From Planctomycetota bacterium (lineage in GTDB: Bacteria > Planctomycetota > Phycisphaerae > UBA1845): 64,000 nt of DNA. The DNA lies in the NCBI GenBank assembly GCA_024275565.1, contig JAJRYY010000009.1, forward strand, positions 636 to 64,635, in the 5' to 3' direction. The notes below the pieces were generated by a model. That model worked only from the letters and a program-made list of their open reading frames with translations. It was not told where the DNA came from and searched no databases. Each line of letters starts with the position of its first letter. The stretch's first letter is position 1. A program made the translations under genes and the position numbers. Below, piece after piece: positions 13,824-57,934 of the stretch.

Positions 13824-16364
13824 ATGACGTGCAGATCGATACCGTCCCTTCTTCTCGTAGTCACCCTGCTGGGTCTCTATTCTGTGCCCGAGACGGACGC
13901 CGCCCAGGTGGTGCTACGGCCGTCGAAGGACAACACATTGTATGACGGCAACGGTGGCACTCGAAGCAATGGGGCAGGGCAACACGTTTTTTCGGGGAAC
14001 AATAACAACCCCGCATTGCTTCCCCGACGGGCGGTGTTCTTCTTCGATGTGGCTGGCAATGTTCCTTCTGGAGCGACCATCAACAGCGTGGTACTCGAAC
14101 TGAATGTCACGCGTGCCGGATCGGGAACTCCGGCGATGAGTCTCCATCGCCTGAATACTGACTGGGGCGAATCTACGTCGCTTCCCAGCGGTGGTGCTGG
14201 TGGTGGAGGTGGAGGTGGACCGGCTGCTACCGGTGATACGACATGGTTGCATACATTTTTCAACTCGTCGTTCTGGGCATCCCCTGGTGGTGATTTCAGC
14301 GGAGTGGTCAGCGGGAGTGCATCAGTCGGCGGTGTCGGTTCATACACCTGGGGATCGACCGCGCAGATGGTGGCTGATGTTCAGGACTGGGTAGACAATC
14401 CCGCCGGTGAATTTGGGTGGATTCTGATTGGTAACGAAGCAGTGACACAGTCTGCCAGGCGGTTTGCATCTCGCCAGAACAGCAATTCGAGTTTGCGGCC
14501 TTTGCTGACGATCGATTACACAACTTCGGGGATCTCCGGTGCGTGCTGTGCAGGCGATGGAACTTGCACGAACCTCACGCCGCTCGCCTGCAGCAATAGC
14601 GGGGGAATCTATCAGGGCGACAATGCACCCTGCTTTCCGAATCCCTGTGTTCCTGCCATTGGTGCGTGTTGCGAGAACAGTGGGGTATGCACGGACACAA
14701 CGGATGCGGATTGCACGCTTCTGGGCGGCGTTTTTCAAGGCGTGGGCAATCTATGCTCCCCCGGCCTCTGCCCGGTGATCCTGGAACCCTACGTCGATGC
14801 TCTGCCGATTCCCGGCGTGTTGCAACCTGTCACGGGCACGTCTGGCGGGGTGGCTCATTATGTCGTCAACATGCTTGAGTTCGATCAGCAGCTTCATCGC
14901 GACCTGCCACCGACCCGGTTGTGGGGATATGAAGGTTTGTACCCCGGTCCTACGATCGAGGCGACGAGTGGTCAGCAGGTTACGGTGGAGTGGGTCAACG
15001 ACCTCCGCGATGAGTTTGGGGTGTTGAGAACCGATCATCTGCTTCCAGTGAATCTCTGTGCGCATGGTCCGAATACCGAAGGCGACAATCCACGCACAGT
15101 GGTCCATCTTCACGGCGCTCATGTTCAGGAGGAATACGATGGTTATCCTGAAAGCACCTTCCTGCCCGGCGAGAGTGATACTTACATCTACGAGAACAAC
15201 CAGCTTCCTGCCACGTTGTGGTACCACGATCACGCGATCGGTATTACGCGACTGAACGTGCAACTCGGTCTTGCTGCATTCTACATCATTCGTGACGCGT
15301 TCGAGTTGAGTCTGGGTCTTCCGGATGGCGAGTTCGAGATTCCCATCGCGATTCAGGATCGCACGTTCAACCCCGATGGATCTCTCGTGTATCCCTTCGA
15401 CCTGGGCGATTTCTTCTTTGGCGATACAATGGTGGTCAATGGAAAAGCCTGGCCATTCCTGAACGTCAAGCAGGGCAAATATCGCCTGCGATTGCTGAAC
15501 GGTTGCAATGCCCGGACGCTGACGCTTGCGATGTCGTCGGGCGATCCTTTCGTGCGGATCGGTACGGACGGTGGATTGCTGCCCACACCGGTGACGGTGA
15601 GTGAAATCACGTTGTCACCGGCTGAGCGTGCGGATGTCATCATTGATTTCGCCGGGTTCGCACCGGGAACCGAAATCATCCTGACCAACAGCGCTCCTGC
15701 ACCCTACCCCGGACTGGCTGGCGTCGGTGTGATTCCCGAAGTCATGAAGTTCATCGTGACGGCGGACCCTGGTGATACCGACCCGATCCCGACGAAACTG
15801 CGTCCGATGGAGGTGCTTCAGGAAGCAGACTCGGTCGTCACGCGTGATTTCGAGTTAAGCAAGGTGGCTGAACCCTGTGCCGGTGCAATGTGGACGATCA
15901 ACGGTCTGATGTGGAACGACATCACCGAGTTCCCGGTTCTTGATACCACCGAGACGTGGCGGTTCATCAACAAGTCCGGCATGATGCACCCGATGCACAT
16001 GCACCTTGTGATGTTCCAGGTACTGGACAGTCAGCCATTCATGATGGTTGGTGACGAGATTGTCACGACGGGTCCTCCCGTAGCACCCCCTCTGCATGAG
16101 CAGGGGTGGAAGGACACCGTGCGGGTCGATCCGTTTGAAATCGTGCGTGTGATCGCCCGGTTCGAGAGCTACACAGGGAAATATGCCTACCATTGCCACA
16201 TCCTCGAACACGAGGACCACGAGATGATGCGGCAGTTCCAGGTCGTTGCACCAGGTGATATTCCGACGATGTCTGAGTGGGGTATGCTGAACCTGGCCAT
16301 CTGCCTGATGATCGCGGGACAACTGATCTTCGCTCGACGAAGGCACAGTTCGATCGCGCGTTAA
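13824..16364 (+). CDS. secreted multicopper oxidase (CotA/bilirubin-oxidase-like) with a DNRLRE-like N-domain, two Cys-rich modules and an IPTL-CTERM-like tail
   Basis: Signal peptide present. Copper ligand motifs HLHGAH, WYHDH, HPMHMHL and HCHILEHEDHEMM. The C-terminus is DIPTMSEWGMLNLAICLMIAGQLIFARRRHS. Confidence 0.9.
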   Translation: MTCRSIPSLLLVVTLLGLYSVPETDAAQVVLRPSKDNTLYDGNGGTRSNGAGQHVFSGNNNNPALLPRRAVFFFDVAGNVPSGATINSVVLELNVTRAGSGTPAMSLHRLNTDWGESTSLPSGGAGGGGGGGPAATGDTTWLHTFFNSSFWASPGGDFSGVVSGSASVGGVGSYTWGSTAQMVADVQDWVDNPAGEFGWILIGNEAVTQSARRFASRQNSNSSLRPLLTIDYTTSGISGACCAGDGTCTNLTPLACSNSGGIYQGDNAPCFPNPCVPAIGACCENSGVCTDTTDADCTLLGGVFQGVGNLCSPGLCPVILEPYVDALPIPGVLQPVTGTSGGVAHYVVNMLEFDQQLHRDLPPTRLWGYEGLYPGPTIEATSGQQVTVEWVNDLRDEFGVLRTDHLLPVNLCAHGPNTEGDNPRTVVHLHGAHVQEEYDGYPESTFLPGESDTYIYENNQLPATLWYHDHAIGITRLNVQLGLAAFYIIRDAFELSLGLPDGEFEIPIAIQDRTFNPDGSLVYPFDLGDFFFGDTMVVNGKAWPFLNVKQGKYRLRLLNGCNARTLTLAMSSGDPFVRIGTDGGLLPTPVTVSEITLSPAERADVIIDFAGFAPGTEIILTNSAPAPYPGLAGVGVIPEVMKFIVTADPGDTDPIPTKLRPMEVLQEADSVVTRDFELSKVAEPCAGAMWTINGLMWNDITEFPVLDTTETWRFINKSGMMHPMHMHLVMFQVLDSQPFMMVGDEIVTTGPPVAPPLHEQGWKDTVRVDPFEIVRVIARFESYTGKYAYHCHILEHEDHEMMRQFQVVAPGDIPTMSEWGMLNLAICLMIAGQLIFARRRHSSIAR

Positions 16365-16451: not shown

Positions 16452-17279
16452 CTATTTCCCGGTAAAGCTGATCTGGAACTGACCAAAGTCTGCAAAATCG
16501 ATATCGACATCACCGTCGAAATCGAATGCACAGGTACAGTCTTCTCCAGCAGGACCTGGCCCCGTCATGCAATCGAGAATGGCGGCTGCATCGAGGAGGT
16601 CTACATCACCGTCGCCGTCGAAATCACCCGATGGACCGGTGCATCCTTGCGCACCATTCAATACGACCCGGTCGAGACCGAAGACGCCAGCGGTCATGGT
16701 CGGAGGTCCGAGCAAAATGGGCGGTGTGTCGTGGCGGAAGAATACCGCATTCACGCCCTGAAGCACCTCATCAAATGTGGCAGACGGGGGATCTTCAAAC
16801 CCGATGTACACGAAGTCGTCTGCCAGGAGGTCGACCGTGAATTCGGTCCAGTCCGTCCCGACGGGCAGGATGACCCCTTTGATGGCAGAATAGCGTGCGC
16901 CCTGACCGAACTGCCCATCTGCAAGCCCGAGATGGATTTCGAGATCGATGGCACCGAGGTTCTTCAACCAGAATGTCATCGAGGTTGCACCGACCGCAGG
17001 ATAATCGCCGAGGAATGCGCTGTGGAGTTTTTTGTCCCGGGCGTGAATTCCGAGCGGGCCGGGGAGATCCGGCGTGCGAGACATCTGCAGAAAACCGTCA
17101 CCATCGCCACCAACACCGCCGGTACCAGGGTTGGTTGAAGGTGTCTGGGCGAACCAGCCATTCGCGTCGCCACCGGAAAAATCCTCAACGACGCCCGTTT
17201 CGGCAGCCATCGCTCCCGCCGCCATGCCCATTGCCACCGTCATACACGCGAATACACCCGCGCTCATTTTCTTTCGCAT
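16452..17279 (-). CDS. secreted protein of unknown function with C-terminal dockerin/EF-hand-like tag
   Basis: Signal peptide (MRKKMSAGVFACMTVAMGMAAGAMA). C-terminus GDFDGDGDVDLLD...FDFDGDVDIDFADFGQFQISFTGK. Confidence 0.75.
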   Translation of the reverse strand: MRKKMSAGVFACMTVAMGMAAGAMAAETGVVEDFSGGDANGWFAQTPSTNPGTGGVGGDGDGFLQMSRTPDLPGPLGIHARDKKLHSAFLGDYPAVGATSMTFWLKNLGAIDLEIHLGLADGQFGQGARYSAIKGVILPVGTDWTEFTVDLLADDFVYIGFEDPPSATFDEVLQGVNAVFFRHDTPPILLGPPTMTAGVFGLDRVVLNGAQGCTGPSGDFDGDGDVDLLDAAAILDCMTGPGPAGEDCTCAFDFDGDVDIDFADFGQFQISFTGK

Positions 17280-17518: not shown

Positions 17519-18850
17519 TCAGGATCGACCGTTTCGACCCAGTTTGACAGGGGTTGCCTCGAACTGCTCCTCCTCGGTTGATCCTGCCAGTGCGGTCGTT
17601 TCAGCCGCCCCGCCAGTGACGAGAGTCTGGATTTTGTCGAAATATCCGGTTCCGACGAACCGCTGGTGCTTGGTGGCCTGGTATCCGAAATCTCGGTCGC
17701 TGTCGAATTCATGCTCCTGAAGTGAAGCGTAGGCGGTCATGCCCTCGTCGCGGTATTTTCTAGCCAGCTCGAACATGCCGAGATTAAGACAATGGAAGCC
17801 CGCCAGAGTGATGAACTGGAATTTGTATCCCATCGCGCCCAGCTCTCGCTGGAACTTTGCGATCGTTGCGTCGTCGAGCTGGGCCTTCCAGTTGAAGGAG
17901 GGGGAACAGTTGTAGGCCAACAGCTTTCCGGGATATTCGGCGTGGACTGCCTCGGCGAATCGCTTTGCCTCGCCCAGGTCGGGATGGGCAGTTTCGCACC
18001 AGATCATGTCGCAATGTGGGGCGTATGCGAGGCCTCGGGCGATGGCAGCGTCCATCCCGCCATTGAACCGGAAGAAACCCTCGCTTGTGCGCTCACCAGT
18101 GATGAATGGCCGGTCCCGCTCGTCTGTGTCGCAGGTGAGAAGCTTGCAACCATTGGTGTCGGTGCGTGCGACAAGGACAGTTGGAACGCCGCAGACATCG
18201 GCCGCCATCCGTGCCGCAATAAGTTTCTGGATGAACTGGTCAGTGGGGACCGCCACTTTTCCGCCCATATGACCGCACTTTTTAGCGGACGATAACTGAT
18301 CCTCAAAATGCACGCCGGCGGCGCCAGCTTCGATCATGAGTTTCATAAGCTCGTATGCGTTGAGGTTGCCACCGAACCCTGCTTCCGCGTCTGCGACGAT
18401 CGGTGCGAACCAGTACTTACCCGTCGGATCGTCGCTCATCTGATCCACCTGGTCGGCGCGCATGAGCGCTGCGTTGACCCTTTTAACAACATTTGGGACG
18501 CTATCGGAGGGGTAGAGACTCATGTCGGGATACATTTGACCCGCAAGGTTCGCGTCGGCGGCTACCTGCCAGCCGGACATATAGATTGCTTTCAGTCCGG
18601 CCTGGACCATCTGAACAGCCTGATTTCCGGTCAATGCTCCGAGTGCGTGGACATAATCCTCGGTATGCATGAGGCTCCAGAGGCGTTCTGATCCGAGTGT
18701 TGCGAGTGTGTGCTCGATTTTGACGCTGCCGCGAAGCTGGATGACATCCTCAGCCGTGTAGGGTCGTACAACGCCTGCCCAGCGCGGATCCTTCTTCCAA
18801 TAATCCTGCATCTGCTGAACAATGACGTCGCGGTTACCGTTGATAATCAT
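17519..18850 (-). CDS. aceA: isocitrate lyase
   Basis: Catalytic motif KKCGHMGGK and full-length ICL similarity. The start is set at the ATG at 18850, which has a GGAGGAG Shine-Dalgarno 6 nt upstream. The ORF track begins at a TTG at 18871. Confidence 0.95.
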
Positions 18851-18946
18851 ATTTTTCTCCTCCGGGTTCAATATCCCAGTCTTGGCTTCCTGTTGTTTAG
18901 CTTTCTATATTTGTAGTTTCCCAGTTTCAGCGTCCCAGTTTCAGAT

Positions 18947-20608
18947 TCACTTGTTTTGCAGCTTCCCCAATAGTTCGTATGCGGGGAGCGTTAGAAAATC
19001 GACGAGCGTTTCGTCGGTTGAAATGCGATCGAAGATGTCTGCGGCTTCGACGAAAGCACCCGCAGCGAAACGCTCTTCTCCGACCCCTTCTCTGATATGT
19101 TTCAGCTCATCGCGGAGCATTGATTTGAAGAGTTCTTTCGTGATGACAACGCCATCTGTCTGCGCAACAGTTCCATCTGCCCGCTTGACATATCCATCAG
19201 ACAGCTTTGCACGGTGGCGGATCCATTGCCATATCTGTGTGCGTGAGATTTCAGCAGTGGCAGCGTCTTCCATAAGATGATAGAGCGGTACGCAGCCATT
19301 CCCGCGTAACCAGCTTTCCAGATATTGGACGCCGACACTGATATTGTGTCGAAGTCCTTTCTCCGTAATATTCCCACGCGGAACTTCGAGCAGATCGTTC
19401 GCCGTAACCATGACATCCCCGCGTGGCCGATCGATCTGATTCGGGCCTGGCATTTTTTCGTTGAATATATCCATTGCAGTCGATACCAGTCCGGGGTGCG
19501 CCACCCACGTCCCATCATGCCCTTCTTCAACTTCGCGTAATTTGTCTGCACGGACTTTGGCGATGGCTGCTTCGTTTGCCTTCGGATCAGATTTTATCGG
19601 AATCTGTGCAGCCATACCGCCCATGGCATGGGCACCTCGGCGGTGACATGTTTGAATGACATACCGTACATAGTTCCGCATCAATGGAACGGACATCGAT
19701 ATCTGGTCACGGTCCGGTAATACAAATCTGGAATTATTTCGGAATGTTTTAACAAAACTGAAAATATAATCCCAACGTCCGCAATTCAGACCGGCTGAGT
19801 GGTCCCGAAGCTCGTACAGAATTTCATCCGCTTCAAAGCTGGCCAGCACATGCTCAATGAGCACGGTTGCCTTGATCGATCCACGCGGGATGCCCAGTTC
19901 GTCCTGAGCGGTCTTGAAGAGGTCGTTCCAGAGTCGTGCTTCGAGGTGGTTCTGCAATTTCGGAAGATAATAATAGGGTCCAGAACCGTTATTGAGCAGC
20001 GTCCTGGCGTTGTGGAAGAAGTACAGCGCAAAATCGAAAATGCTACCGGAAACGGGTTGATTATCGACCCTGAGATGTTCCTCAACCAGATGCCAACCTC
20101 GCGGGCGGATCATGAGCGTCGCAGGATGATCGAAGAGTTTGTATTGCTTCCCTTCGGAGTTTGTGAATGCGATGGTGCGATTGACTGCATCACGCATGTT
20201 TATCTGCCCCTGGACCATGTTGTCCCAGGTTGGCGAATTGGAATCCTCAAAGTCTGCCATGAAACATTGCACGCCACTGTTGAGGGCATTGATGACCATT
20301 TTTCGATCGGTGGGTCCGGTAATCTCCACGCGTCGATCGCGCAGGTCATTCGGTATGGGCGCTATTTTCCATTTCGATTCCCGGATCCCCTCAGTCATTT
20401 CCAGAAAACCGGGCATATGCCCGGCGTCAATATCGCATTGGCGATCGATACGCTTGTTCAGGAGGTCGATGCGTGTTGCGTTATGGGACCGGTGGAGCGT
20501 CGCAATGAACGCGAGCGCCTCTGGTGTAAGGATTTCTGCGTATTCGGGCGTCACCAGCCCATTTATGGATATACCGTCCGTTACAACTGTCGCAATGCGC
20601 GCAACCAT
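18947..20608 (-). CDS. aceB: malate synthase A
   Basis: Motifs [13 protein letters not shown] and RPRGWHL, with full-length similarity to malate synthase A. The start is either the ATG at 20608 or the GTG at 20614. Confidence 0.92.
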
Positions 20609-20759
20609 ACTCACCCCTTTTTTCCAAAGGAAATATCGTTATCGGTGCATGTTCAATCGAGAAGTATGCCAGGAAACGACTCCATACATACTGCATTATG
20701 GGTCGTATTACTTTTCCCCTTTCCATCTCGTACGTATCATTCGTAGCGATTGAAGAATA

Positions 20760-20774
20760 ATTAGGCAAACTAAT
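20760..20774. promoter_or_regulatory. candidate LysR-type T-N11-A box
   Basis: Perfect dyad ATTAG-GCAAA-CTAAT in the aceB/LysR divergent region. Confidence 0.45.
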
Positions 20775-20775
20775 A

Positions 20776-21762
20776 GTGCCAATGTATAGTATTGATAGAA
20801 TCTATTATGGAAATTGGGGGCAGAACATCGTGGCGAAGCAGGTCCATCGCGCCTACTACAAGCAGAATCGATTGCAACAATTACGCGGATTCTGCTACGC
20901 AGCCAAGGCGCTCAGCATCTCGAAGGCAGCTCAGAAGATGTTTCTGAGTCAACCGTCCGTGTCTCTGCAGATCCAGGCGTTGGAGCGCGAGCTGGGGGTC
21001 GTGCTGTTTGAACGGTATGGACCGAAAATATCGCTCACCCCCGATGGGGAAGCGTTGCTCGTCCTGGCGACCCCACTCGTGGAGGGGATGGACAACCTCC
21101 CTGCGTCCTTTGCAGCCCGTCGCGAGGAGATCGGCGAAGGCAGACTCGATGTCGCCGCTGGCGAATCGACCATCCTCTACATTCTCCCGGAACTTGTTCA
21201 CGCTTTCAGCAAGCGTTACCCACGCATCGAACTGAAGCTCCACAATGTCACAGGTCAGACCGGGTTGAAAATGCTGCGGGCGGGTGAAGTTGATTTCGCT
21301 GTCGGGTCCATGATCGATACGCATGATGACATCGTGTTTGCTGCGATCTGGACGTACGCACCAATGCTCATCACGCCGATGGACTGTCCGCTGGCGGATC
21401 GAAAGCGCGTGAGCATGAAAGACATCGCCGCAGAACCGCTTATTCTCCCGCCGCGACAGCTCACGACCTACCGACTGATCGAAGCAGCGATGGAGCAGCG
21501 AGGCCTAAACTACCATGTGCGGGTGGAGGCTGGAGGCTGGGAGGTGATTAAGAAGTATGTTCAGATCGGGCTGGGCGTGTCGATAGTCCCGAGCTTCTGC
21601 CTGACCGGCGATGAACCCGTCAGGTCGATTTCCGTCAAGGGACACTTCCCGGAACGGACCTACGGCGTGGTGCTTCGGAAAGGGAGATTTCTATCGCCAC
21701 AGGCAAAGGAGTTCATTCGAAACCTCTCACCCTTGACGCATGACCTCGCGGAAATCGCGTAA
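20776..21762 (+). CDS. LysR-family transcriptional regulator (divergent from aceBA)
   Basis: N-terminal wHTH (LQQLRGFCYAAKALSISKAAQKMFLSQPSVSLQIQALERELG) plus a LysR substrate-binding domain. The true start may be the GTG at 20830. Confidence 0.88.
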   Translation: MPMYSIDRIYYGNWGQNIVAKQVHRAYYKQNRLQQLRGFCYAAKALSISKAAQKMFLSQPSVSLQIQALERELGVVLFERYGPKISLTPDGEALLVLATPLVEGMDNLPASFAARREEIGEGRLDVAAGESTILYILPELVHAFSKRYPRIELKLHNVTGQTGLKMLRAGEVDFAVGSMIDTHDDIVFAAIWTYAPMLITPMDCPLADRKRVSMKDIAAEPLILPPRQLTTYRLIEAAMEQRGLNYHVRVEAGGWEVIKKYVQIGLGVSIVPSFCLTGDEPVRSISVKGHFPERTYGVVLRKGRFLSPQAKEFIRNLSPLTHDLAEIA

Positions 21763-23921: not shown

Positions 23922-25022
23922 TCAGCGGGGTCCTGTGTAGGCAGCACCGAATGACGCGAAATCTGAAAGGGTCGTCGCACCATCCCCGTCCGCATCGAAC
24001 GGACGACAGTCTACCGATACATCGCCCCCCATGCACAACTGAAATATCGCAAAATCGCCGAAATCAATATCCCCGTCGTCATTCGCATCGCCATAAAGCG
24101 AAACGTCAGCCTGTTCCGCAACATAGCCAGCCACCGACCGCAGCAGATCCTTCAGCATGTCGAAGTCAATGTAATCCGGGGAGACATCGATCGCGTCGTT
24201 TTGCGTATGGTAAAACCCGTTGCACAGATAACATCGCTCGATGACAACAAAAGCCGGTATCCCGACCGACTCGAACGACCAGTGATCCGAAAATGAAAAA
24301 TTACCGAAATTCAAAAACGCCGACAGACCGTTTCCATAAGTGTCGATCGCCGTTGCGATACCATTTGCAGCAGCAGCGGACGCATTCTTGCTGTAAATAT
24401 CCATCCCATAAGCACCGCTGTTATGCCCCACCATGTCAGTCGTCACAGCCAGCACGATATTCGCATCGGCGTGATCCGCAACAAACGCAACACTGCCCCG
24501 CTTGCCCTGCTCCTCACGATCGAAGCAGACGAATTTGATCGTGCGCGCACTCCGCATCCCGGAAAACAACCGGGCCGTCTCCATAACCACAGCCGACCCC
24601 GATCCATTATCATCTGCTCCAGGATTGTTGGCCGAATCAAAATGTGCACCCACGACAATGATCTCGTCGGGATGCTCGTAGCCCGTCAGCGTCGCAACAA
24701 CGTTGTGGTAGGTCGTCCCGTTATATTGGAAGGGGTCAAGCTCCGCATCGAAACCATACAGCATGAAATCCGCCAGAATATTGTCGCGGGCGAGGTCGTG
24801 CTCAGGACCAAATCCACGGTTGTCACCAAGGCGCGTATACAGCAGATCCTCCATGCAGTGTCGGTAATGACCAATATCGACCCGATCGGCAATCACTCCG
24901 GGAGGAGCTCCGGCATTGGCAGAAGTTGTGATGACCGAAAGAACGCAATGGGATGACACGATAAGAACTGAAAGACCCTGTCGATTACGGCCCTGTCGAT
25001 TAATGCTCTGTCGAAAATTCAT
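23922..25022 (-). CDS. M28-family aminopeptidase with C-terminal dockerin/EF-hand-like tag
   Basis: Zn-ligand region VGAHFDSANNPGADDNGSGSAVV. C-terminus GDANDDGDIDFGDFAIFQLC...FDADGDGATTLSDFASFGAAYTGPR. The start is set at MNFRQ (25022), ahead of the signal-like segment. Confidence 0.8.
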   Translation of the reverse strand: MNFRQSINRQGRNRQGLSVLIVSSHCVLSVITTSANAGAPPGVIADRVDIGHYRHCMEDLLYTRLGDNRGFGPEHDLARDNILADFMLYGFDAELDPFQYNGTTYHNVVATLTGYEHPDEIIVVGAHFDSANNPGADDNGSGSAVVMETARLFSGMRSARTIKFVCFDREEQGKRGSVAFVADHADANIVLAVTTDMVGHNSGAYGMDIYSKNASAAAANGIATAIDTYGNGLSAFLNFGNFSFSDHWSFESVGIPAFVVIERCYLCNGFYHTQNDAIDVSPDYIDFDMLKDLLRSVAGYVAEQADVSLYGDANDDGDIDFGDFAIFQLCMGGDVSVDCRPFDADGDGATTLSDFASFGAAYTGPR

Positions 25023-25320
25023 GATATTGCTCGCACAGATGTACCTCGACCCGGCAGTTTTAGACTGCACTTTCAGGCTGCACCGGATCATTGATCCACA
25101 CGTCCATGATACCACGCCTCCAACACCTCCTTCAAGCACAATCGGCCCGAAAATACGCCTTCCCCTGACTTAATCCAGATCGCGCCGATCCATCGGAATT
25201 TCGGTCGTTCCGCCCTGATGCTGATTGGGTCCGATCTTGTCCCATCGCGCTCTGAGACTGAAGCGGATTGACATTCGTAACCGGATGACCCATCCTTGAT
25301 CCATGTAGCCAAGCCGCAGG

Positions 25321-26899: not shown

Positions 26900-27060
26900 A
26901 AGTCATTATGATCGGTGACTATGTTCGTATAAGTCATGTTCGCGCAAGTCATGTTCGCATAAGTCATATTCGTACAAGTCATGTTCGAAAAGTCAGGCAC
27001 GGAGAAACCATGTCCGGGGAAGTCAATCCCCGGCAGACGGGCTTTTGAGTCAAAAAGTCA
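26900..27060. repeat. array of nine AAGTCA/GAGTCA hexamers, five within a 15-bp tandem repeat, upstream of the FG-GAP gene
   Basis: AAGTCA occurs at 26900, 26931, 26946, 26961, 26976, 26990, 27020 and 27055, and GAGTCA at 27047. The repeat unit is aagtcatgttcgcNN. Confidence 0.8.
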
Positions 27061-27077
27061 AGCGGCAAGGAGCGACG

Positions 27078-28790
27078 ATGTCTTCAGTTTATCGGAATAT
27101 GTACGTTTTTGTGTGTATGGTGTCGATGTTGAGCGGGGCGGGTTCCGCCATGGGGCAGCAGTTCGTTGAGAGTACGAATGCACGCCTGCCAGCCGCTTCC
27201 CCACTGGAATACTCCGAGCAGGTGGACATGGCCGACATCGATGGCGATGGCGATATGGACATGCTCTTCGCCAACGGCCGCGGGTTCAGCAGCCCACAAC
27301 AGCAGCAGCGCAACCGCCTCTATATCAACGATGGCAACGGATTCTTCGTCGATGAAACGTCGCTGCGCTTACCGACCACCCTTCTGGGATACACGCGGGA
27401 CGTCGAATTCGGCGATGTGGACGGCGATGGCGATATGGACCTCCTCATCGTCAACACGTTCAACACGCAATCCTGGTTGTTGATCAACGACGGATCTGGC
27501 TTCTTCACCCACGACTCCGCCGCACTGCCGACCTCCAGTTTCAGCGGTTCAGACGGCGATTTCGGCGATGTGGACAACGATGGCGATCTGGACATCATCT
27601 TCACGAACTCCGGAACATCAGCCTTCGGAACCGGCATTGACAAGCTGTACATCAACGATGGAACGGGGTTGTTTTCGGACGAAACCGGTACGAGGCTTCC
27701 GGGCGTGGGCGTCGCGCAGAGCATTGATTGCGATTTTGCGGATATCGACGGCGACCTCGATCTGGACCTGATTATGGGACATCGCGACGGTCGATCTCAG
27801 CTTTGGCGAAACGACGGAGCCGGTTTCTATACCGACATCACCCTCAGCAACCTCCCCAACGATGGCAGCGGAACATATTCAGTGGACCCGGGCGATATCG
27901 ATGGCGATGGCGATCTGGACCTGATGGTCGTTCGCGGCAGTACGGATCGGGCATTCCGCAACGATGGTACGGGTGATTTTTTCAATGTGACTGCGGCTGT
28001 CCTGCCGAGCAACCCATTTCAGGATGACAACGACGGCGACTTTTTCGACCTCGATAACGATGGCGACCTCGACTACATCATCGCCCGCCTCGGCAGCGGT
28101 GGCGAGCGGGTGTATGTCAACAACAACGGCGTCCTGCAACTGACCCCGGGCATGATTACAGTGATATCGGACTCAACGCTGGACGTGGAAATCGGCGACC
28201 TCAACAACGATGGTCGCCTGGATGTTGTGACCGCCCAGGGCGAATCCGGAAGCTTCAGAAACCGCATCTACATGAGCAGTGGCCCCATCGACACGCTCGC
28301 ACCCGTGACAGCCCAACTGGACGATCTAGCGGATACGGACGATTCGACTGGTCCCTATGTGGTGCGGGCAGCGATCCGCGACGGGATGACGGGCGATAAC
28401 AATTTCCACGATCGCGGCATCCAACTGCTTTACAGCGTTGGAAACGGATCGCCCCAGACCGTCCCGATGGTCTGGTCCGGCGGCGACCTCTATCGCGGCG
28501 AAATTCCAGGACTGGCCGCTGGTTCCATGGTCGCCTACTCCGTCATGGCCATGGACTGGGCTGGCAACCTTGGCATTTCCTCTGAGATGACATTCGCGGT
28601 CACGGGCGGAATCCTCGGCGATGGCGACGGCGACGGCGATGTCGATTTGAGTGATCTGGGCAGCTATTTCGACTGCGTCGGCACCTCACTGGTGGGGGGC
28701 GACAGTTGTGCTTCGTTCGATTTCGACGGCAACCAGAACGTGGATTTCGCCGATTTTGGATCCCTCCAGCAAGCCTTCACCGGCAGTTAG
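27078..28790 (+). CDS. FG-GAP/VCBS-repeat (integrin-alpha-like beta-propeller) secreted protein with C-terminal dockerin/EF-hand-like tag
   Basis: Repeated D(I/V)DGDGD(M/L)D(L/M) Ca-binding loops. The start is set at the ATG at 27078, which has an AAGGAG Shine-Dalgarno. C-terminus GDGDGDGDVDLSDLGSYFDC...FDFDGNQNVDFADFGSLQQAFTGS. Confidence 0.85.
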   Translation: MSSVYRNMYVFVCMVSMLSGAGSAMGQQFVESTNARLPAASPLEYSEQVDMADIDGDGDMDMLFANGRGFSSPQQQQRNRLYINDGNGFFVDETSLRLPTTLLGYTRDVEFGDVDGDGDMDLLIVNTFNTQSWLLINDGSGFFTHDSAALPTSSFSGSDGDFGDVDNDGDLDIIFTNSGTSAFGTGIDKLYINDGTGLFSDETGTRLPGVGVAQSIDCDFADIDGDLDLDLIMGHRDGRSQLWRNDGAGFYTDITLSNLPNDGSGTYSVDPGDIDGDGDLDLMVVRGSTDRAFRNDGTGDFFNVTAAVLPSNPFQDDNDGDFFDLDNDGDLDYIIARLGSGGERVYVNNNGVLQLTPGMITVISDSTLDVEIGDLNNDGRLDVVTAQGESGSFRNRIYMSSGPIDTLAPVTAQLDDLADTDDSTGPYVVRAAIRDGMTGDNNFHDRGIQLLYSVGNGSPQTVPMVWSGGDLYRGEIPGLAAGSMVAYSVMAMDWAGNLGISSEMTFAVTGGILGDGDGDGDVDLSDLGSYFDCVGTSLVGGDSCASFDFDGNQNVDFADFGSLQQAFTGS

Positions 28791-28964: not shown

Positions 28965-30509
28965 ATGCACCTATACATCATCGCAGCCTACGCCCTACTC
29001 ATCTGGTGGTCCCAGGAACGTCCGTTCCAACCCCCTGTTGACAATACCTCGTGGACCTTTGTCATCATCGCAGGCCAGGTCGCCGCGCTGTGGGTTCTCG
29101 CACGGATGCTGATGAAGCTCACCCTTAGAAGGCTTGACTCCAGCCAACGGGACCCTGCCTGGGTACAACACGCCAACCACCGTCATATCCTGGTCCTCAG
29201 GGCGATCGTCCTGGCTGGTTTCGCTGTAGACCTCACGCTCACTAACTGGATCGACATCGTCACCAACATCCCCCTGCCCTTTTTTGTACCCGGACTCACC
29301 GGCCTGTTCACCATCACCCCGTTCCTGATCGGAACCATCCTCGTCCTGACCGCCTCTTACCCGGTAGACCGCGCCATTCGGCTTCGTGTGGCTGACACAG
29401 CTCCCTGGGAAACGCATGACCCCGTCTGGAGCCTCAAAACATACCTCGAATTCCACATCCGCCACTCACTGCTCACCGTCGTCATCCCCACAACACTCAT
29501 CCTAATCTGCTATGATCTCGCGACCCATTTTGAAAAAACGCTCGTCCAGTGGTTTCGCATCCCCTACGCCACCGACCTGCTCCTCGGCGCGTCTGCCTGC
29601 GGCGTTTTCCTCATCGCACCGTGGATCCTGAAGCACGTCTGGCCGACCGAACCCCTCCCCGATGGACCGCTTCGCCGGGAACTCGAACTCATGTGCAAAC
29701 GGGTCAACCTGAACTGCCGCGACATCCTCGTCTGGAAGAGCGGCGGGATGACCGTCAATGCGGCGGTCATGGGATTGCTGCCACAAATCAGATATGTCAT
29801 GCTATCGGACGGACTGCTTAGCTCCATGCCAGACAAACAGGTCGAAGCAGTGTTTGGCCACGAAGCAGGACACGTCAAACACCGACACATCCAGTTCTTC
29901 CTCTTATTCGCATTCGCCAGCATGTTGATCGCCGCCGGTTTCGTGGAGATTCTGTATCGTCACGCGCGACAACCGGATGCCTGGGTGCGCCTGTCCCTTG
30001 CAGAAATCCAGGCTATGGGTTTCGCATTCATCATGGCGATCTGGGCGGGAGCGTTCGGTTTTATCAGCCGGCGATTCGAGCGTCAGGCAGACCTCTTCGG
30101 AGCACGTTGCGTCACGCCGGTATCGAACAATGAGTGCAAAGTCCCGTGCGGAATCCACGCGGACGACGATGCAAACAACCATGAAATCAGTGCGGAAAAG
30201 GAAACATCCCGCCCTCAGTCTGATCCAATGGGGGGTCTCTGTGCTACCGGGGCGGGAATCTTCAACGATGCCCTCCACCGCGTCGCTCAACTCAATGGCA
30301 TTCCACTCGATGAACCAAGCTGGCGGCATTCATCCCTCGCAAACCGCATCGATTCGCTCACCCGACTCGCATCCGACCCCAACAGCCTCACCAGATTTGA
30401 GAAGGTCATCCGACACATCAAGCAGGCGATCCTCATCGTCTGCGTTGTCGGAACCGCAATATCCCTCTACTATATCCGTATTGACTACCTGAACGCCGCG
30501 TCCAATTAG
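28965..30509 (+). CDS. M48-family integral-membrane zinc metalloprotease
   Basis: Multiple TM helices and an HExxH motif (FGHEAGHVKHRH). Confidence 0.8.
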   Translation: MHLYIIAAYALLIWWSQERPFQPPVDNTSWTFVIIAGQVAALWVLARMLMKLTLRRLDSSQRDPAWVQHANHRHILVLRAIVLAGFAVDLTLTNWIDIVTNIPLPFFVPGLTGLFTITPFLIGTILVLTASYPVDRAIRLRVADTAPWETHDPVWSLKTYLEFHIRHSLLTVVIPTTLILICYDLATHFEKTLVQWFRIPYATDLLLGASACGVFLIAPWILKHVWPTEPLPDGPLRRELELMCKRVNLNCRDILVWKSGGMTVNAAVMGLLPQIRYVMLSDGLLSSMPDKQVEAVFGHEAGHVKHRHIQFFLLFAFASMLIAAGFVEILYRHARQPDAWVRLSLAEIQAMGFAFIMAIWAGAFGFISRRFERQADLFGARCVTPVSNNECKVPCGIHADDDANNHEISAEKETSRPQSDPMGGLCATGAGIFNDALHRVAQLNGIPLDEPSWRHSSLANRIDSLTRLASDPNSLTRFEKVIRHIKQAILIVCVVGTAISLYYIRIDYLNAASN

Positions 30510-51635: not shown

Positions 51636-51964
51636 GATATCAACTCGTTGAACCATAGATCGACTGCATAGCATCATCTTTTTATCGGACCTCGTTACAG
51701 CAAACTCACTTGATCGCACACACATGCACCTGTCGCACGTTCATGCACCTGTCGCATGTCGCGGACAACGCGAGACGCACCAGGTTATTCTTGCAAAGCA
51801 CATGACGATTTTCAATGCGATAATGAGATAAAGGTGCGAACTCGCCAGTTTCGCACGCTGGAAGTGTCATCAATTGAAGAATTTGCACCCTTTGACGGTG
51901 CGAAATCCGCCTTTCATCGCCGGAAGCAATGTGCCGGCTGGGTCGTTTGCTTCAGTGGATGGTA

Positions 51965-52043: not shown

Positions 52044-55000
52044 TTATGGAGCGGTATCGCCCCGGCGTACATCCTGCATCGCTCTTTGGATGAGAGGTCG
52101 ATAATGTGTGCCGACACCTTCCTTGATGAGGTTTTCCGCTCCTTCCAGCAATGATTTTGCTTTGTCGAGGTCGCCTGAGCGTCGGTAGGCTTCTGCGAGG
52201 TGGTAAATGGCGGGGACGTATTGCCGTTCCTTTTCGAGCAGCTTTGTGAGGAGTGCGATGGCTTCCGGATATTCTCCGAGCTTGACGTGCGTCCATGCGA
52301 GCGTGTCCTTGACGGTTGGATGCCCATGGACCTGGGCTGCGCGCTGTGCGTAGGCGAGTGCGTCGCGCGGTCGATCCATTTTATCGCTCAGGAGGAATGC
52401 GAGGTTGTTGAGTCCTATAATGTTGGTGTCGCTTATTTCCAGCAGGGCTTCATAGGTTTGCCTCGCGTTCTCGTAGTCTTCCTGCCGCTCATAGACGTTG
52501 CCAAGTCTGGCAAGGATGTAGATTTTCTCGGCATCGATGTTCGATGTTTCGATGATGCCCTGCATCAATGCTATTGCTTCTGAATCCTGCTCAAAATGTG
52601 CGCGGAGAATGGCGAGGATGTGGCGTTGTGCCCGCTCGAGCGTCGGGTCATCCAGTTTTTCGCTGAACAAGCCGACGGATTCTTCCTTGTCACACGAGCG
52701 AATGACGGCGACTCCGATTTCTTCCAGTGGACGTAATGTGCCGAACCCGGAATCTCGGAACGCCTTCAGGAACAATGGTACTGCCAATTCGAGCTGCCCG
52801 GTGTGTGCCAGCAGTTCGGCGTATCTTGCCTGAATGATCGTGTTAATTTTATCCTCAGGGACGACCTCCTTGTAGTATGTCAGCCCGCGATCGTATTGCT
52901 TCAGGGTGATGTATGCGCCAAGGAGGGATGCGACCTGGTCGGAATCGTATCCACTTAGTTTGGCTGCCTTCTCGTAGTCGACTATCGCGCTGGCTGCATC
53001 GCCGACCTTCATCTTCAACTCGCCGCGCTGGGTCACCCAGTAGGGATTGTCCTTGTAGCGATTTGCCATGGACGTCACTATGCGAATTGCGTCTGTATAT
53101 CTGTCATGTACCTGATACATGGCGACGAGATGTTTCGCCACCTTGATGGCTGACGGATCGTCGCGCAGAATTGATTCGAGCCCCTGGAACGCGAGTTCAA
53201 GATTGTGGACGAGTGCATACCCATCCGCCAACAGCAGACGTGACTCGTAGTTCTGGAATTTCGGATCGACGCTTCTGATGCGTTCGAGCTCACGGATCGC
53301 GATAGGCCAACGCCCCTGTGAACCGTACAAGCGCGCTCGCTGCAAGGTTGCGTTGAGATCGTCTGGATGCCTGTCGAGATAGCGCGAGAGGTGTTCGATG
53401 GCGTCATCGACGCGGCCTGAGACGATTGAGACTGCGCTGTTGAGCAACATCACGTTCGGATCTTCCGGGTAACGCCGCTCAAAATCCTCGACGGCCTGCT
53501 GTGCGAGTTCCTTCTGGTGTGTTCGGAAAAACAGGTCGATTTTTCGACGCCGGAATTGAATGGCGATCTGTGTGGATTTCTGATCTGCGAGGTTGATTGC
53601 CCGATCGTACCATTCCAAAGCCGCTTCGAAGTCGCGTGCGTCAGTTTTAAAGGTGGCGAATGCAGCACACACTTCCAGGAATTCACCATGCGAGGCTGCG
53701 CGTTGCAGTGCGGCTTCTGCCCGTTTCATGTCGCCCTGCACATGCCAATGTTCTGCGAGAAGAAGCTCTGCTTTTGCTTTGGATTCCGGATCGGTCGCTT
53801 TTTTCGCATACCCCTGCAAGACCTCGAGGGCGCGATCGGTCTCACCAATGGAGCGGAAGAATTTTGCGGCGATCAGGATCGTGTTGATGCGTGTGTCGGG
53901 TATTTTGAGGGCGTCATCGAAACATGCGACGGCATTTGGAATCTGCTTGGTGCGGATGTAGAGGTCCGCCAGCGCGATGAGATTTTCAACATTGGATGGC
54001 TGACTTGCCCGAATACGCTCTCGTCTCTGGATGCCCTCCACAGGCGTGGATTTTTCGCGAAGCGTCAGCAACTGAGACTGGACCCACGAATCGTTGGGGA
54101 TCAGTTTGTCGCAATATTGAAGCCGCCGCACCAGCTCTTGCGGATTTCCCTGGACCGATGCGATGATCGCCAGCCCCTTTTGCGCCGCGCCGAGGTTTGG
54201 ATTGGCTTCTACTGCCCTTGTAAAGTAGGTGCTTGCCTCGATGATGCGCGGCGGGGTGACAGACATTTGCGACTGCGCCATCAAGGTGAGCACATCGGCA
54301 TTGGTGGGCTGCTTCTCCAACGCCAGCTTGAACGATGAAATCGCCCCCTCATGGTCGCCCAGGACCTGGTACACACGGCCGCGATACGAGAGGCCGTCCG
54401 CCCCGTCGATGTTTTCCTTCACGGCGGCTTGAACAATGGATTCCATCTCTTCTTCGTCGCGGGCTTCGGCGGCGGCGGCGAAACGTCGGTCCAGGATTTC
54501 GCGGAGGAATTTCTGCCGTATCCCCTGATTTACGTTTGATTCGGGGGCGAGAAGTGCCGTTTGTGCAAGCTTGAGTGCAGCGACGTATGCGTCACGATTG
54601 CCATGCTGCAATTCAAGCTTGGCGATGCGGAAATTCCGTTCAAAATCGCTGGGAATCTCTTCGATCACCTTCATCTGGGCGTCATATCGCACCTCAGGAG
54701 CCATGTCTGGATCAGACACAGTCTCAAGCATCTTGAGGACCACGCTGTCTGGAGATTCTGCCATCCCACGGCGCACCAAAGTCAGCGCCTTGTCGTTCTG
54801 TTTCGCCTCATTGAGAATCTGCACCGCAAGCCGCAGGCAGGTGATGTTGGCTGGTTCATTTTGCAGCAGAGACTCGAGTATGGGCATTGCATCTGCCCCC
54901 TTGCCTGCGTCGTATAGCGCCTTGGCTTCCCGGTACAGATCGACCGGGGCTTCACGGAAGTAACTGTCGCGAATCGCGTTTGCAAGCTCCACCTGTCCGC

Positions 55001-56549
55001 GCCGCTGCAACGCCGTCATCTTCACGCGCAGTGCTTCTCGATTCTCCGGACTGCGTCGCAGGGCTTCGTCGACGGCTTGCAACGCCATCATGTCTTTGTT
55101 TGTCTCCAGCAAGATCTGTCCGTACAGCACCCAGCAGGAGGCGTCGGCTGTGTCATCGCCAATCGCATCGGCGATGGCTGACTCCGCGGCGCCTGGGCTT
55201 CCGCTTCGCAACAGGAGCTGTGCGAGCAAGCGACTGTTCTGCCAGTTTGGCTTTCCAAATTGCTTCCTCGCGTGCTCAAGAAGCGTGATCGCCTCGCGCT
55301 CGCGCCCCTGCCCGACTCGAATCTTGCCCATCGTGTGCAGACCTGGACCCTGATCCGGAAATTCACCCGATGCCAGCACTGCAAAACCCTCAGCACGATC
55401 GAGAACCTCTGTGTACTCCTCCGAACCGGGATCGACTGTGGCTGCGTGTGCGAGACATTCTTCGGCGGCTTTTATCATGGTCAGATAAAGTGCGAACTTG
55501 CGCTGGAAGGTTTTGAATCCTTCGCGTCTGATGCCGAGATCGATGCGACTCTGACAGATTTTTACTGCTTCAAGATGATCGCCCTGGTATCCCGAAAGCT
55601 CGGCCAGGAGCATGTATGGCATGAACCCCCTGTCGTAGATGGCGATGCTTTCTTCCAGCAGCTTCCTGGCGTTGTTGTAGTACTGCTCTGCTTCTTTCGC
55701 CAGGGCAGGGTCTCGTACAACCTTGTACCAGCGAGCCACCCAGTACTGGGCAAACTGAGATTTGACATTGCCCGCGATTTCAGGATCGTCCCCGGAAAAT
55801 TGCTCCGCTGCACGGAAATATTTCAATGCGTCTTCGTGCTTGTTGTTGGCAGAAAGATACCGGGCAAACGTGTAACGCACACGCGCAGCCTCCTCGCCAG
55901 GCGTCTGGTGAACTTCGATCAGGCGTTTCAGTATGTTTTCTGCTTCCTCGGTGCGACCTTCAAGATGGATGATGCTCGCCATCGACAGCGCATACTTGAC
56001 TACGTTTGGAGCAACCCGGACCGCTCGGCGAATGTAGTCAATCCCCTCCCGACGATTTCCGCCGTCCTTCTCTGACAGACGCAACAATGCCGTCCCCAGA
56101 CTGTAAAGCCCGAGCGGATTCTCCTGGTCGACTGCGAGCAATTCCTCGGATGCTTTTTTGACGCGTAACCAGCCTGCCGGCGTGCTGTGCATTTCCACCA
56201 GCTGGTTGGCTTTCTCGATGCCTTTTTCATGCGCCTCGACCAGGGAAGGGTCCTGATTGATCGCCTTCACCCAGAGCTCCCATGCCCCCTCGTCGTCGCC
56301 CTTCTCGTCGAGCATCTTTCCGGCTTCGACATAATACTTCGCGTCTCCGGAAACATTGGCTGCACGCATGTAAAAACTCTTGGCTTGCAACCAGTCGTTC
56401 TCGCTGGCACATTTCTTCGCCAGCTCAACATAGTGCGTTGGATCTGTCTGTCTCAGCGACAGAACCATGATCACGCCCACCGCTGTCATCACCACAAATC
56501 CTGCAAACGTCAGAGCACCGACGAGTGGCTTGTTTATTTTCCTGGCCAT
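52044..56549 (-). CDS. 1501-aa membrane-anchored tetratricopeptide-repeat protein
   Basis: N-terminal TM anchor (LVGALTFAGFVVMTAVGVIMVL), then TPR-like A/L/Y/E-rich 34-aa periodicity along nearly the whole length. Confidence 0.85.
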   Translation of the reverse strand: MARKINKPLVGALTFAGFVVMTAVGVIMVLSLRQTDPTHYVELAKKCASENDWLQAKSFYMRAANVSGDAKYYVEAGKMLDEKGDDEGAWELWVKAINQDPSLVEAHEKGIEKANQLVEMHSTPAGWLRVKKASEELLAVDQENPLGLYSLGTALLRLSEKDGGNRREGIDYIRRAVRVAPNVVKYALSMASIIHLEGRTEEAENILKRLIEVHQTPGEEAARVRYTFARYLSANNKHEDALKYFRAAEQFSGDDPEIAGNVKSQFAQYWVARWYKVVRDPALAKEAEQYYNNARKLLEESIAIYDRGFMPYMLLAELSGYQGDHLEAVKICQSRIDLGIRREGFKTFQRKFALYLTMIKAAEECLAHAATVDPGSEEYTEVLDRAEGFAVLASGEFPDQGPGLHTMGKIRVGQGREREAITLLEHARKQFGKPNWQNSRLLAQLLLRSGSPGAAESAIADAIGDDTADASCWVLYGQILLETNKDMMALQAVDEALRRSPENREALRVKMTALQRRGQVELANAIRDSYFREAPVDLYREAKALYDAGKGADAMPILESLLQNEPANITCLRLAVQILNEAKQNDKALTLVRRGMAESPDSVVLKMLETVSDPDMAPEVRYDAQMKVIEEIPSDFERNFRIAKLELQHGNRDAYVAALKLAQTALLAPESNVNQGIRQKFLREILDRRFAAAAEARDEEEMESIVQAAVKENIDGADGLSYRGRVYQVLGDHEGAISSFKLALEKQPTNADVLTLMAQSQMSVTPPRIIEASTYFTRAVEANPNLGAAQKGLAIIASVQGNPQELVRRLQYCDKLIPNDSWVQSQLLTLREKSTPVEGIQRRERIRASQPSNVENLIALADLYIRTKQIPNAVACFDDALKIPDTRINTILIAAKFFRSIGETDRALEVLQGYAKKATDPESKAKAELLLAEHWHVQGDMKRAEAALQRAASHGEFLEVCAAFATFKTDARDFEAALEWYDRAINLADQKSTQIAIQFRRRKIDLFFRTHQKELAQQAVEDFERRYPEDPNVMLLNSAVSIVSGRVDDAIEHLSRYLDRHPDDLNATLQRARLYGSQGRWPIAIRELERIRSVDPKFQNYESRLLLADGYALVHNLELAFQGLESILRDDPSAIKVAKHLVAMYQVHDRYTDAIRIVTSMANRYKDNPYWVTQRGELKMKVGDAASAIVDYEKAAKLSGYDSDQVASLLGAYITLKQYDRGLTYYKEVVPEDKINTIIQARYAELLAHTGQLELAVPLFLKAFRDSGFGTLRPLEEIGVAVIRSCDKEESVGLFSEKLDDPTLERAQRHILAILRAHFEQDSEAIALMQGIIETSNIDAEKIYILARLGNVYERQEDYENARQTYEALLEISDTNIIGLNNLAFLLSDKMDRPRDALAYAQRAAQVHGHPTVKDTLAWTHVKLGEYPEAIALLTKLLEKERQYVPAIYHLAEAYRRSGDLDKAKSLLEGAENLIKEGVGTHYRPLIQRAMQDVRRGDTAP

Positions 56550-56675: not shown

Positions 56676-57470
56676 CTACAAAGCTTCCTGATCGTCTTCC
56701 AGTTCGGCTTCCTGTTCAGCTTCCAGTTCAGCTTCCTTGATCGCCTTCCAGTCAGGCCAATGTTCTTCAATCAGCAAGGGCAGGATGCGCGACAATATCT
56801 CGCGTGTCTCCTCGATCGCCTCTTCACGCGTTGGGAATGTCACCGTCCCGACGGTCACCTCAACCTTGCTATAGTATGCCTGACTGTCGTATGGGTTCGT
56901 AATCGCGCGAATGATCTCGCCTCGTCTGGCTGCAAATTTTCCATTCGCGTGGAACGTATAGATCACGGTCATGCTTGCGCTGTTGAAAATGCCCGTTTTC
57001 ACGAACGTAAGAACGCGAACCGTCACTTCCTTATCACCCTTCAGCGTGGGGATGGTCAGCGTGACGTAATCCTGCGAATCTGCCTCATAACCAGAAGCTG
57101 CCAGGCAAATATCGGGCGTGTGCAGATGCCGCTCGGTATTTCCGGGGTAGTAGGTCACCGACACCCGCGCGTAACGGCGCGGATCGTCGGGAGAATCGAG
57201 TTTCGTATTTTCCAGTACCCAGTTGATGTACTGATCCGTGCCAAGGGTCTCGACCACCGAAGATTCGAGCTGGTGAGATTTCACAAGATGGTATTTTCCA
57301 AGACGCCGCTCATCGAGTTGAGAGAGGGGTTTCCGAAGCTGAGCAGCCACCTTTTCCGTCGATACCCGGACGAGGCGTGCAAGGGGTTGCAATCCCAGGG
57401 CTGTAACACCCAGCAACATCGTGCAGATGAGAAACGGTTTGTTAAAAAAAGGAGGTGCCTGCTGACTCAT
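56676..57470 (-). CDS. EpsI-like (exosortase-associated, DUF3485-type) protein
   Basis: N-terminal TM helix and an EpsI-type motif HTPDICLAASGYE preceded by RVSVTYYPGN. The C-terminal tail is acidic (EAELEAEQEAELEDDQEAL). Confidence 0.65.
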   Translation of the reverse strand: MSQQAPPFFNKPFLICTMLLGVTALGLQPLARLVRVSTEKVAAQLRKPLSQLDERRLGKYHLVKSHQLESSVVETLGTDQYINWVLENTKLDSPDDPRRYARVSVTYYPGNTERHLHTPDICLAASGYEADSQDYVTLTIPTLKGDKEVTVRVLTFVKTGIFNSASMTVIYTFHANGKFAARRGEIIRAITNPYDSQAYYSKVEVTVGTVTFPTREEAIEETREILSRILPLLIEEHWPDWKAIKEAELEAEQEAELEDDQEAL

Positions 57471-57850: not shown

Positions 57851-57934
57851 AATTGGCGACGATTGGTGTTCAGAGACGCTTTGCAATGTCCGATAAACCA
57901 AAATGACAATATCGCAGACTATCGGGAGCGACTC

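Follow-up and report, generated by a model that had tools for sequence, protein, structure and literature searches.

A predicted CotA-like multicopper oxidase of a Phycisphaerae bacterium with a DNRLRE/CBM96-like domain and a candidate IPTL-CTERM-type sorting tail

Exported proteins of the PEP-CTERM class end in a three-part tail and are handled by an exosortase (XrtA, EpsH) described together with EpsI and PrsT, and this class of signal has long been associated with exopolysaccharide (PMC1569441). An IPTL-CTERM domain has been predicted by InterProScan in the S-layer protein mela_00855 of Methylomirabilis lanthanidiphila (PMC8671808). The carbohydrate-binding module (CBM) family CBM96, established on a DNRLRE-type domain, is a proven alginate binder; its module is ∼30% identical to DNRLRE-domain members, and its structural neighbours include pro-BMP9 and pro-activin (PMC9971899). 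Among oxidases, the spore-coat protein CotA of Bacillus subtilis (1GSK), a laccase/bilirubin oxidase, serves as reference. In the present study, these systems were compared with one gene in a 64,000-nt (64-kb) stretch of contig JAJRYY010000009.1, from a metagenome-assembled genome (MAG) of a Phycisphaerae bacterium (phylum Planctomycetota); the whole stretch is called the window below. The open reading frame (ORF), 846 aa at 13824..16364 on the forward strand, agrees with the original prediction, and its product is arranged in the order signal peptide, DNRLRE domain, two six-Cys modules, CotA-type core and IPTL-CTERM-type tail (Table 1). We consider it probable, at roughly 60%, that the product is exported as a laccase-like multicopper oxidase of the cell surface or matrix and undergoes exosortase-type sorting in this Phycisphaerae bacterium. 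Each of the parts is already catalogued (CotA-type multicopper oxidase, DNRLRE/CBM96, IPTL-CTERM), and the protein is an ordinary combination of known kinds. Our literature search found no paper on this domain combination, nor on multicopper oxidases with PEP-CTERM tails.

Table 1. Positions of the oxidase gene, its parts and other features in the window
Feature	Position	Strand	Basis
Complete oxidase precursor gene, 846 aa, stop codon included	13824..16364	+	ORF list
Predicted Sec signal peptide, residues 1-26 (MTCR, hydrophobic core, ETDA before AQ)	13824..13901	+	Read from sequence
DNRLRE/CBM96-like beta-jelly-roll domain, residues 36-230	13929..14513	+	NF033679, AlphaFold2 model, Foldseek
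Cys-rich module 1 (CCAGDGTCTNLTPLACSNSGGIYQGDNAPCFPNPC), residues 241-275	14544..14648	+	Regex scan, conservation, model
Cys-rich module 2 (CCENSGVCTDTTDADCTLLGGVFQGVGNLCSPGLC), residues 282-316	14667..14771	+	Regex scan, conservation, model
CotA-type three-cupredoxin multicopper oxidase core, residues 319-810	14778..16253	+	phmmer against PDB, Pfam
Copper motif 1, HLHG, residues 428-431	15105..15116	+	Aligned to CotA HLHG
Copper motif 2, WYHDH, residues 466-470	15219..15233	+	Aligned to CotA WYHDH
Copper motif 3, HPMHMH, residues 722-727	15987..16004	+	Aligned to CotA HPIHLH
Copper motif 4, HCHILEHEDHEMM, residues 790-802, type 1 (T1) Cys and axial Met	16191..16229	+	Aligned to CotA HCHILEHEDYDMM
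Sorting-signal signature IPTMSEWG, residues 813-820, two residues past core	16260..16283	+	TIGR04174
Hydrophobic tail helix MLNLAICLMIAGQLIFA, residues 821-837	16284..16334	+	Sequence and hydropathy scan
Basic cluster and C-terminus RRRHSSIAR, residues 838-846	16335..16361	+	Sequence
Small dockerin-tagged protein, Dockerin_1 22.9 bits, equal to cut-off	16452-17279	-	Pfam PF00404
M28 peptidase, Dockerin_1 19.0 bits, under threshold	23922-25139	-	Pfam PF00404
Dockerin-like-tagged protein, no Dockerin_1 match	27045-28790	+	Pfam PF00404
Dockerin-like-tagged 467-aa protein, no Dockerin_1 match	50322-51725	-	Pfam PF00404
PrsT-like tetratricopeptide repeat (TPR) gene, 1,501 aa, downstream of EpsI-like gene	52044..56549	-	TIGR02917
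Stand-alone EpsI-like (DUF3485) gene	56676..57470	-	Pfam PF11984
S8 subtilase, Dockerin_1 passes, 32.7 bits	58733-61555		Pfam PF00404

The N-terminus resembles a signal peptide (MTCRSIPSLLLVVTLLGLYSVPETDA, followed by AQ and then ...PSKDNTLYDG), and the conserved region of all homologs starts directly after an equivalent leader, in line with the signal peptide that had been proposed. The oxidase core aligned with positions 2-511 of the 513 of the CotA chain in 1GSK (E 7e-119, phmmer against PDB). In Pfam, Cu-oxidase_3 (59.9 bits) and Cu-oxidase_2 (77.2 bits) were above threshold and the middle Cu-oxidase domain was just under it (17.4 bits, cut-off 21), and NCBIfam gave partial scores of the core to PhsA-, CueO- and FtsP-like models. 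The four multicopper oxidase motifs HxH, HxH, HxxHxH and HCHxxxHxxxxM are all present, and every copper ligand as well as the axial Met of CotA is kept along this whole-length alignment, which upholds the earlier description of a CotA-like three-cupredoxin oxidase with four copper motifs. CotA differs in being a spore-coat protein without signal peptide, DNRLRE domain, Cys modules or C-terminal sorting tail. With no T1 or trinuclear copper ligand missing, the window protein is predicted to be active as a laccase-like oxidase.

Directly behind this core, the protein ends in GD-IPTMSEWG-MLNLAICLMIAGQLIFA-RRRH-SSIAR, where RRRH finishes 5 residues ahead of the stop codon. The IPTL_CTERM model (TIGR04174) matched residues 813-839 with 21.1 bits against a cut-off of 20.5 (E 2.7e-4), a marginal pass that nevertheless sustains the IPTL-CTERM-type tail of the original prediction, and the second-best model was ‘midcut-by-XrtH’, with a weak match of 18 bits in its internal sorting-signal region. 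Presumably, going by NCBIfam naming, IPTL-CTERM is paired with exosortase H (XrtH). The likeness to IPTL-CTERM lies in the position at the extreme C-terminus, the IPTxSEWG motif, the hydrophobic helix, the Arg cluster and the signal peptide at the other end of the protein, whereas the differences are the change of L to M in the motif, the marginal score, the drift of the signal in the closest orthologs and the host, a Phycisphaerae MAG. A six-frame scan for C-terminal hydrophobic and basic endings and for the motifs found no other IPTL- or PEP-type tail in the window, as had been stated before; the other hydrophobic and basic ending, in a 160-aa protein at 454-936 on the reverse strand, was set aside, having no motif and no leader.

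Compared with the PEP-CTERM/exosortase system (PMC1569441), the tail follows the same three-part logic, the window also contains EpsI-like and PrsT-like genes, and some oxidase orthologs end in genuine PEP-CTERM tails; in contrast, the window oxidase itself has no PEP motif, and the EpsI-like and PrsT-like genes score under the NCBIfam cut-offs and do not stand beside an exosortase, here or in relatives. The Methylomirabilis S-layer protein (PMC8671808), unlike the oxidase, is a structural protein of 312 aa from another phylum, not an enzyme, and was the one mention of IPTL-CTERM in our literature search, which returned nothing on XrtH or on an IPTLxxWG motif. A tblastn search with the tail as query found in annotated plasmids nothing but chance matches, in Aeromonas EAL proteins.

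Homology search scored 8,000 candidates, of which at least 2,653 had E <= 0.001, and the best 120 (in which the window oxidase is P0001, 100% identity) share the whole core of DNRLRE domain, two Cys modules and oxidase at 49-70% identity; for the N-terminal part alone the identity to the window protein was 43-62%. The closest relatives among species-representative genomes reach at most 70% identity, and the nearest named ones are Phycisphaerae MAGs (L003, isolate OFTM371, 70% identity); P0003 also belongs to OFTM371 (JAJDDT01). Public annotation calls the relatives ‘DNRLRE domain-containing protein’ or ‘multicopper oxidase family protein’. The variable part of the family is the C-terminus, directly behind the conserved ...HEDHEMMRQF. 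Six of the 120 have an IPTL-like tail, with the motifs IPTMSEWG, VPALSQWG, LPAVSHRG, IPAASEWG, IPAASAWG and IPTASEWS, and thus all six tail-bearing orthologs, which are 55-70% identical overall, retain the pattern [ILV]P[TA]xSx[WR][GS], while the linker ahead of it differs.

At the same position other members carry other tags. P0018 ends in a type IX secretion system (T9SS)-type tail (Por_Secre_tail, 29.3 bits against 23), P0085 in a PEP-CTERM tail (17.9 bits against 16), as do proteins of L009, L018 and L084, and P0037, P0046, P0071, P0016, P0091, P0108 and P0109 in a dockerin-like tag of the same two-part type as the exported proteins of the window; some relatives end without any tag after ...HEDHEMMRQF. 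The oxidase ortholog at L015 1-2850, from a Kofleriaceae MAG, ends in ...GGCGCNSSSRGSSGSLLLLALCALAWRKSGRGRR, which is MYXO-CTERM-like by appearance. In a neighbour-joining tree of the core, which is of shallow resolution and without bootstrap support, the six IPTL-tailed proteins neighbour each other and are interleaved with dockerin-tagged ones. Hence, the C-terminal surface tag on one oxidase core changes with host lineage.

Five exported proteins of the window end in dockerin-like tails (Table 1). All of these except the S8 subtilase align as one two-part, Cys-containing tag with the consensus GDxDxDGDVDLxDF...C...FDxDxDxDVDxxDFxxFQxxFTG, and on sister oxidase orthologs this two-part tag stands where the IPTL tail would be. 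As for the two C-terminal targeting systems proposed for this window, two types of tag are indeed observed, and the dockerin-like tag is a putative targeting system.

IPTL-like tails were also found on other cargo in the fetched loci, namely on DNRLRE proteins of ∼270-500 aa. One such protein passed the IPTL-CTERM cut-off (L036 4936-5787, 23.4 bits), two others scored 18.9 bits (L005 129-947) and 15.4 bits (L023 383-1912), and DNRLRE proteins of L067 (2552-4003) and L104 have similar tails. The L005 protein belongs to a Phycisphaerae isolate, OFTM321 (JAJDDS01), where its gene immediately precedes that of the dockerin-tagged oxidase ortholog of the same genome, and its tail also touches the VPAMP-CTERM model (14.8 bits). 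PEP-CTERM tails occur on DNRLRE proteins of L116 (1795-2598), L066 (1666-2448) and L016. A real multi-substrate sorting system is plausible from these sequences, because IPTL-like or PEP-CTERM tails stand on further DNRLRE proteins, including one from a Phycisphaerae MAG. Short proteins made up of hardly more than a DNRLRE domain and an IPTL-like or PEP-CTERM tail, L051 9917-10825 among them, recur in Planctomycetota, in Thermoanaerobaculia and in soil metagenomes. This recurrence across phyla fits both the association of the signal class with exopolysaccharide (PMC1569441) and a CBM-like role of the DNRLRE domain.

The DNRLRE-like nature of the N-domain, suggested by the original prediction, was supported by NF033679, which matched residues 36-230 with 49.1 bits (NCBIfam cut-off 34); the name-giving motif is present as DNTLYD (residues 36-41) at the start of the domain. 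An AlphaFold2 model of residues 27-325, built from 60 homologs, reached a predicted local distance difference test score (pLDDT) of 93 and a predicted template modelling score (pTM) of 0.77. In Foldseek, the model of the domain matched best a chondroitin-sulfate-binding CBM (8WAB, E 2e-6, TMt 0.74), next the alginate-binding founder of CBM96 (7VBO, E 3.8e-6, TMt 0.65) and then the prodomains of BMP9, activin and TGF-beta (E 3e-5 to 1e-2), in agreement with the pro-BMP9 and pro-activin neighbours described for CBM96 (PMC9971899). Thus, the domain shares with DNRLRE/CBM96 members a score above the model cut-off, the predicted beta-jelly-roll and the secondary structural neighbours; the difference from 7VBO is that the module there is part of a polysaccharide lyase, while here it is part of an oxidase, with no detectable match at sequence level. 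From the modelled fold we infer that the N-domain may bind acidic polysaccharide. A ten-residue Gly-rich run, GGAGGGGGGG, occupies a loop of this domain (14190-14219, forward strand), and the pLDDT of this block falls to 72-84.

Between this domain and the oxidase core lie the two 35-residue modules, each with six Cys in the pattern CCx5Cx8Cx12Cx4C. A regex scan placed both, and across 60 homologs the 12 Cys are all invariant or close to it, so that the two Cys-rich modules noticed earlier are confirmed. They were modelled as small beta-beta-alpha-beta units (pLDDT 87), with no match in Pfam or NCBIfam and no significant fold match in PDB (best Foldseek E 0.22). The same kind of module, G-A-CC-x5-C-x8-C-...GG-x-QG-...C-x4-C, occurs three more times (50685-51038) in the unrelated 467-aa exported protein of the window listed in Table 1, which has no Pfam or NCBIfam match and a dockerin-like tag at its end, and once in a 1,183-aa protein of L104 (3512-7060).

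An exosortase was looked for in several places. The polytopic membrane ORFs of the window are a ClC channel, an M48/HtpX-like peptidase and a UbiA-family phosphoribosyltransferase only, which agrees with the previous statement that the window has no exosortase. The peptidase, 514 aa at 28965-30509 on the forward strand with eight predicted transmembrane segments, has weak similarity to HtpX/M48 metalloproteases (∼26 bits, far under cut-offs); as an exosortase it was rejected, and it is kept as an unclassified polytopic membrane peptidase. Among flanking ORFs of other loci, a 297-aa candidate with six transmembrane segments (L065) proved to be a formate transporter, and ten more were MFS/DMT transporters, a spermidine synthase fusion, MlaE, ArnT-like or without family match. 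Our literature search found nothing on Phycisphaerae exosortases.

The EpsI-like gene had been pointed out as exosortase-associated. Its identity stands in Pfam, where PF11984 (DUF3485/EpsI) was passed with 33.1 bits against 26.1, and fails in NCBIfam, where EpsI_fam (TIGR02914) gave 16.5 against 42.8; the PrsT-like gene is likewise under its cut-off (TIGR02917, 263.6 bits against 312.2). All 61 of 61 EpsI-like homologs are stand-alone, mostly of ∼260 aa, and their sources are named Phycisphaerae or Phycisphaerales. In L057, L058 and L059, one of which is a 3.79-Mb Phycisphaerales chromosome, the gene belongs to a conserved Phycisphaerae trio of a divergent PglD/NeuD-like acetyltransferase, the EpsI-like (DUF3485) protein and a PrsT-like TPR protein of ∼1,500 aa, a trio that spans 52044-58633 in the window. 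In these three contexts the 10 kb on either side of the trio contain no exosortase, nor does one stand beside the EpsI-like gene in the window, which makes it an EpsI-family gene apart from the partner it usually has. As a lead to an exosortase the gene was therefore rejected, and it is weak evidence for one here.

Several of these results weigh against exosortase-type sorting of the oxidase. No exosortase was found in the 64-kb window, in the ±10 kb around the tail-bearing orthologs on L001 (a 904-kb contig) and L002, or among the 13 polytopic ORFs from other flanks (0 of 13). The window holds just one IPTL-type tail, whose score is only 0.6 bits over the cut-off, and of its five tail-bearing relatives one passes (P0032, on a 904-kb contig, 20.6 bits), while P0002 (17.3 bits) and P0031 (13.5 bits) do not and P0003 and P0110 have no IPTL-CTERM match; in P0003, with LPAVSHRG, the Trp is lost. 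On the carbohydrate side, binding by the N-domain is argued from fold similarity at 13-15% identity. The absence of an exosortase near any ortholog examined, the marginal score and a motif that is degenerate in P0002, P0003 and P0110 would all suit the main rival explanation, in which the tail is an uncleaved stop-transfer anchor. The oxidase would then be a type I membrane protein: its C-terminal helix would keep it at the outer side of the cytoplasmic membrane, the Arg cluster would face the cytoplasm, and no sortase would take part. With ∼10 residues between the folded core and the start of the helix, the enzyme would rest directly on the membrane. A plain anchor, however, needs no Pro/Ser/Trp-Gly motif, yet [ILV]P[TA]xSx[WR][GS] is found in all six orthologs next to a variable linker, the same motif occurs on unrelated DNRLRE cargo in several phyla, and sister orthologs swap the tail for recognised surface-sorting tags rather than for other plain anchors. 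Because the motif is conserved and recurs on other cargo, this rival is weakened, and we regard it as unlikely. Alternatively, the tail could be a Phycisphaerae-specific relative of IPTL-CTERM, processed by a lineage-specific exosortase subfamily or another intramembrane protease and not by XrtH proper. Scores in the clade that run from 21.1 bits down to no match, a shifted consensus (IPAASEWG, VPALSQWG), contact with other variant models such as VPAMP-CTERM in L005 and the stand-alone, atypical EpsI-like gene of the lineage are consistent with such a relative, but the window tail is near-canonical (IPT[L>M]SEWG) and passes a curated cut-off, its second-best model is XrtH-linked, and no candidate for the alternative enzyme was identified; we think this quite unlikely.

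A different rival concerns the N-domain, which might be not a CBM but a prodomain-like intramolecular chaperone or latency domain of the oxidase, as in TGF-beta-family precursors. The model does match pro-BMP9, pro-activin and pro-TGF-beta, precomputed Pfam matches to TGFb_propeptide (PF00688) exist in many homologs, and the domain is always N-terminal, directly behind the signal peptide. Nevertheless, two bacterial CBMs (8WAB, 7VBO) rank first structurally, CBM96 has the same prodomain neighbours and is still a proven alginate binder (PMC9971899), and the DNRLRE domain is also found alone with a sorting tail, where there is no enzyme to regulate. This makes a prodomain function improbable in our judgement.

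Under exosortase-type sorting, which we prefer, the protein would work as follows. The signal peptide, as read from the sequence, would route the precursor through Sec. By homology, the CotA-type core would take electrons from an extracellular donor, for which phenolics, humic material and metals such as Mn(II) are candidates, and reduce O2 to water. The DNRLRE/CBM96-like jelly-roll may hold the enzyme on acidic polysaccharide, most plausibly its own exopolysaccharide or a polymeric substrate, and the two disulfide-rich modules may act as a rigid spacer. By analogy with the established behaviour of PEP-CTERM proteins and their exosortases, the IPTL-CTERM signal of motif, transmembrane helix and Arg cluster would first retain the protein in the cytoplasmic membrane, and an exosortase-family enzyme, XrtH if NCBIfam naming is followed, would then remove the helix and pass the protein to the surface or matrix. 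The oxidase would thus have two holding devices, a CBM96-like domain at its N-terminus and an exosortase-type signal at its C-terminus, and across the family the same core would be fitted with the surface tag of the host lineage. A joint proposal, in which Phycisphaerae have their own IPTL variant [ILV]P[TA]xSxWG and an unclassified exosortase, the exchange of IPTL-like, PEP-CTERM, MYXO-CTERM-like, T9SS-type and Cys-containing dockerin-like tags on one oxidase makes the enigmatic planctomycetal dockerin-like tag a functionally equivalent surface anchor, and DNRLRE/CBM96-like domains generally fix exosortase cargo to the exopolysaccharide matrix, is speculative, and we doubt that it holds as a whole.

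The neighbours of the oxidase gene are rpsB, lpxB, the small dockerin-tagged protein, isocitrate lyase, malate synthase and a LysR regulator. With neighbours such as rpsB, lpxB, isocitrate lyase and malate synthase, operon coupling was rejected, which leaves the oxidase as a solitary gene. The two glyoxylate-shunt enzymes, isocitrate lyase and malate synthase A, are encoded together with a divergent LysR/CysB-family regulator at 17519-21762, ∼1.2 kb downstream of the oxidase and past the small convergent dockerin-tagged gene. Elsewhere in the window (39344-43489, forward strand), a 1,381-aa protein contains G8, CEMIP-type beta-helix and Big_7 domains by Pfam and has no NCBIfam match. CEMIP-like beta-helices are linked in animals to depolymerisation of hyaluronan and polysaccharide.

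The current understanding of these systems is unchanged by this locus, whose value is that of a useful, well-supported annotation; more instructive are two by-products, the swapping of tags at the level of the family and a Cys module without a family model. To our knowledge, cargo destination and tail cleavage are still poorly known for the whole PEP-CTERM class, and because laccase activity is easily assayed, an exosortase-tailed oxidase would be a convenient reporter of both. Tag swapping, moreover, is a natural experiment for comparing surface-anchoring signals. The oxidase family itself is uncharacterised and is spread across soil, sediment and water MAGs of many phyla, where it might take part in oxidising phenolics, humics or metals outside the cell.

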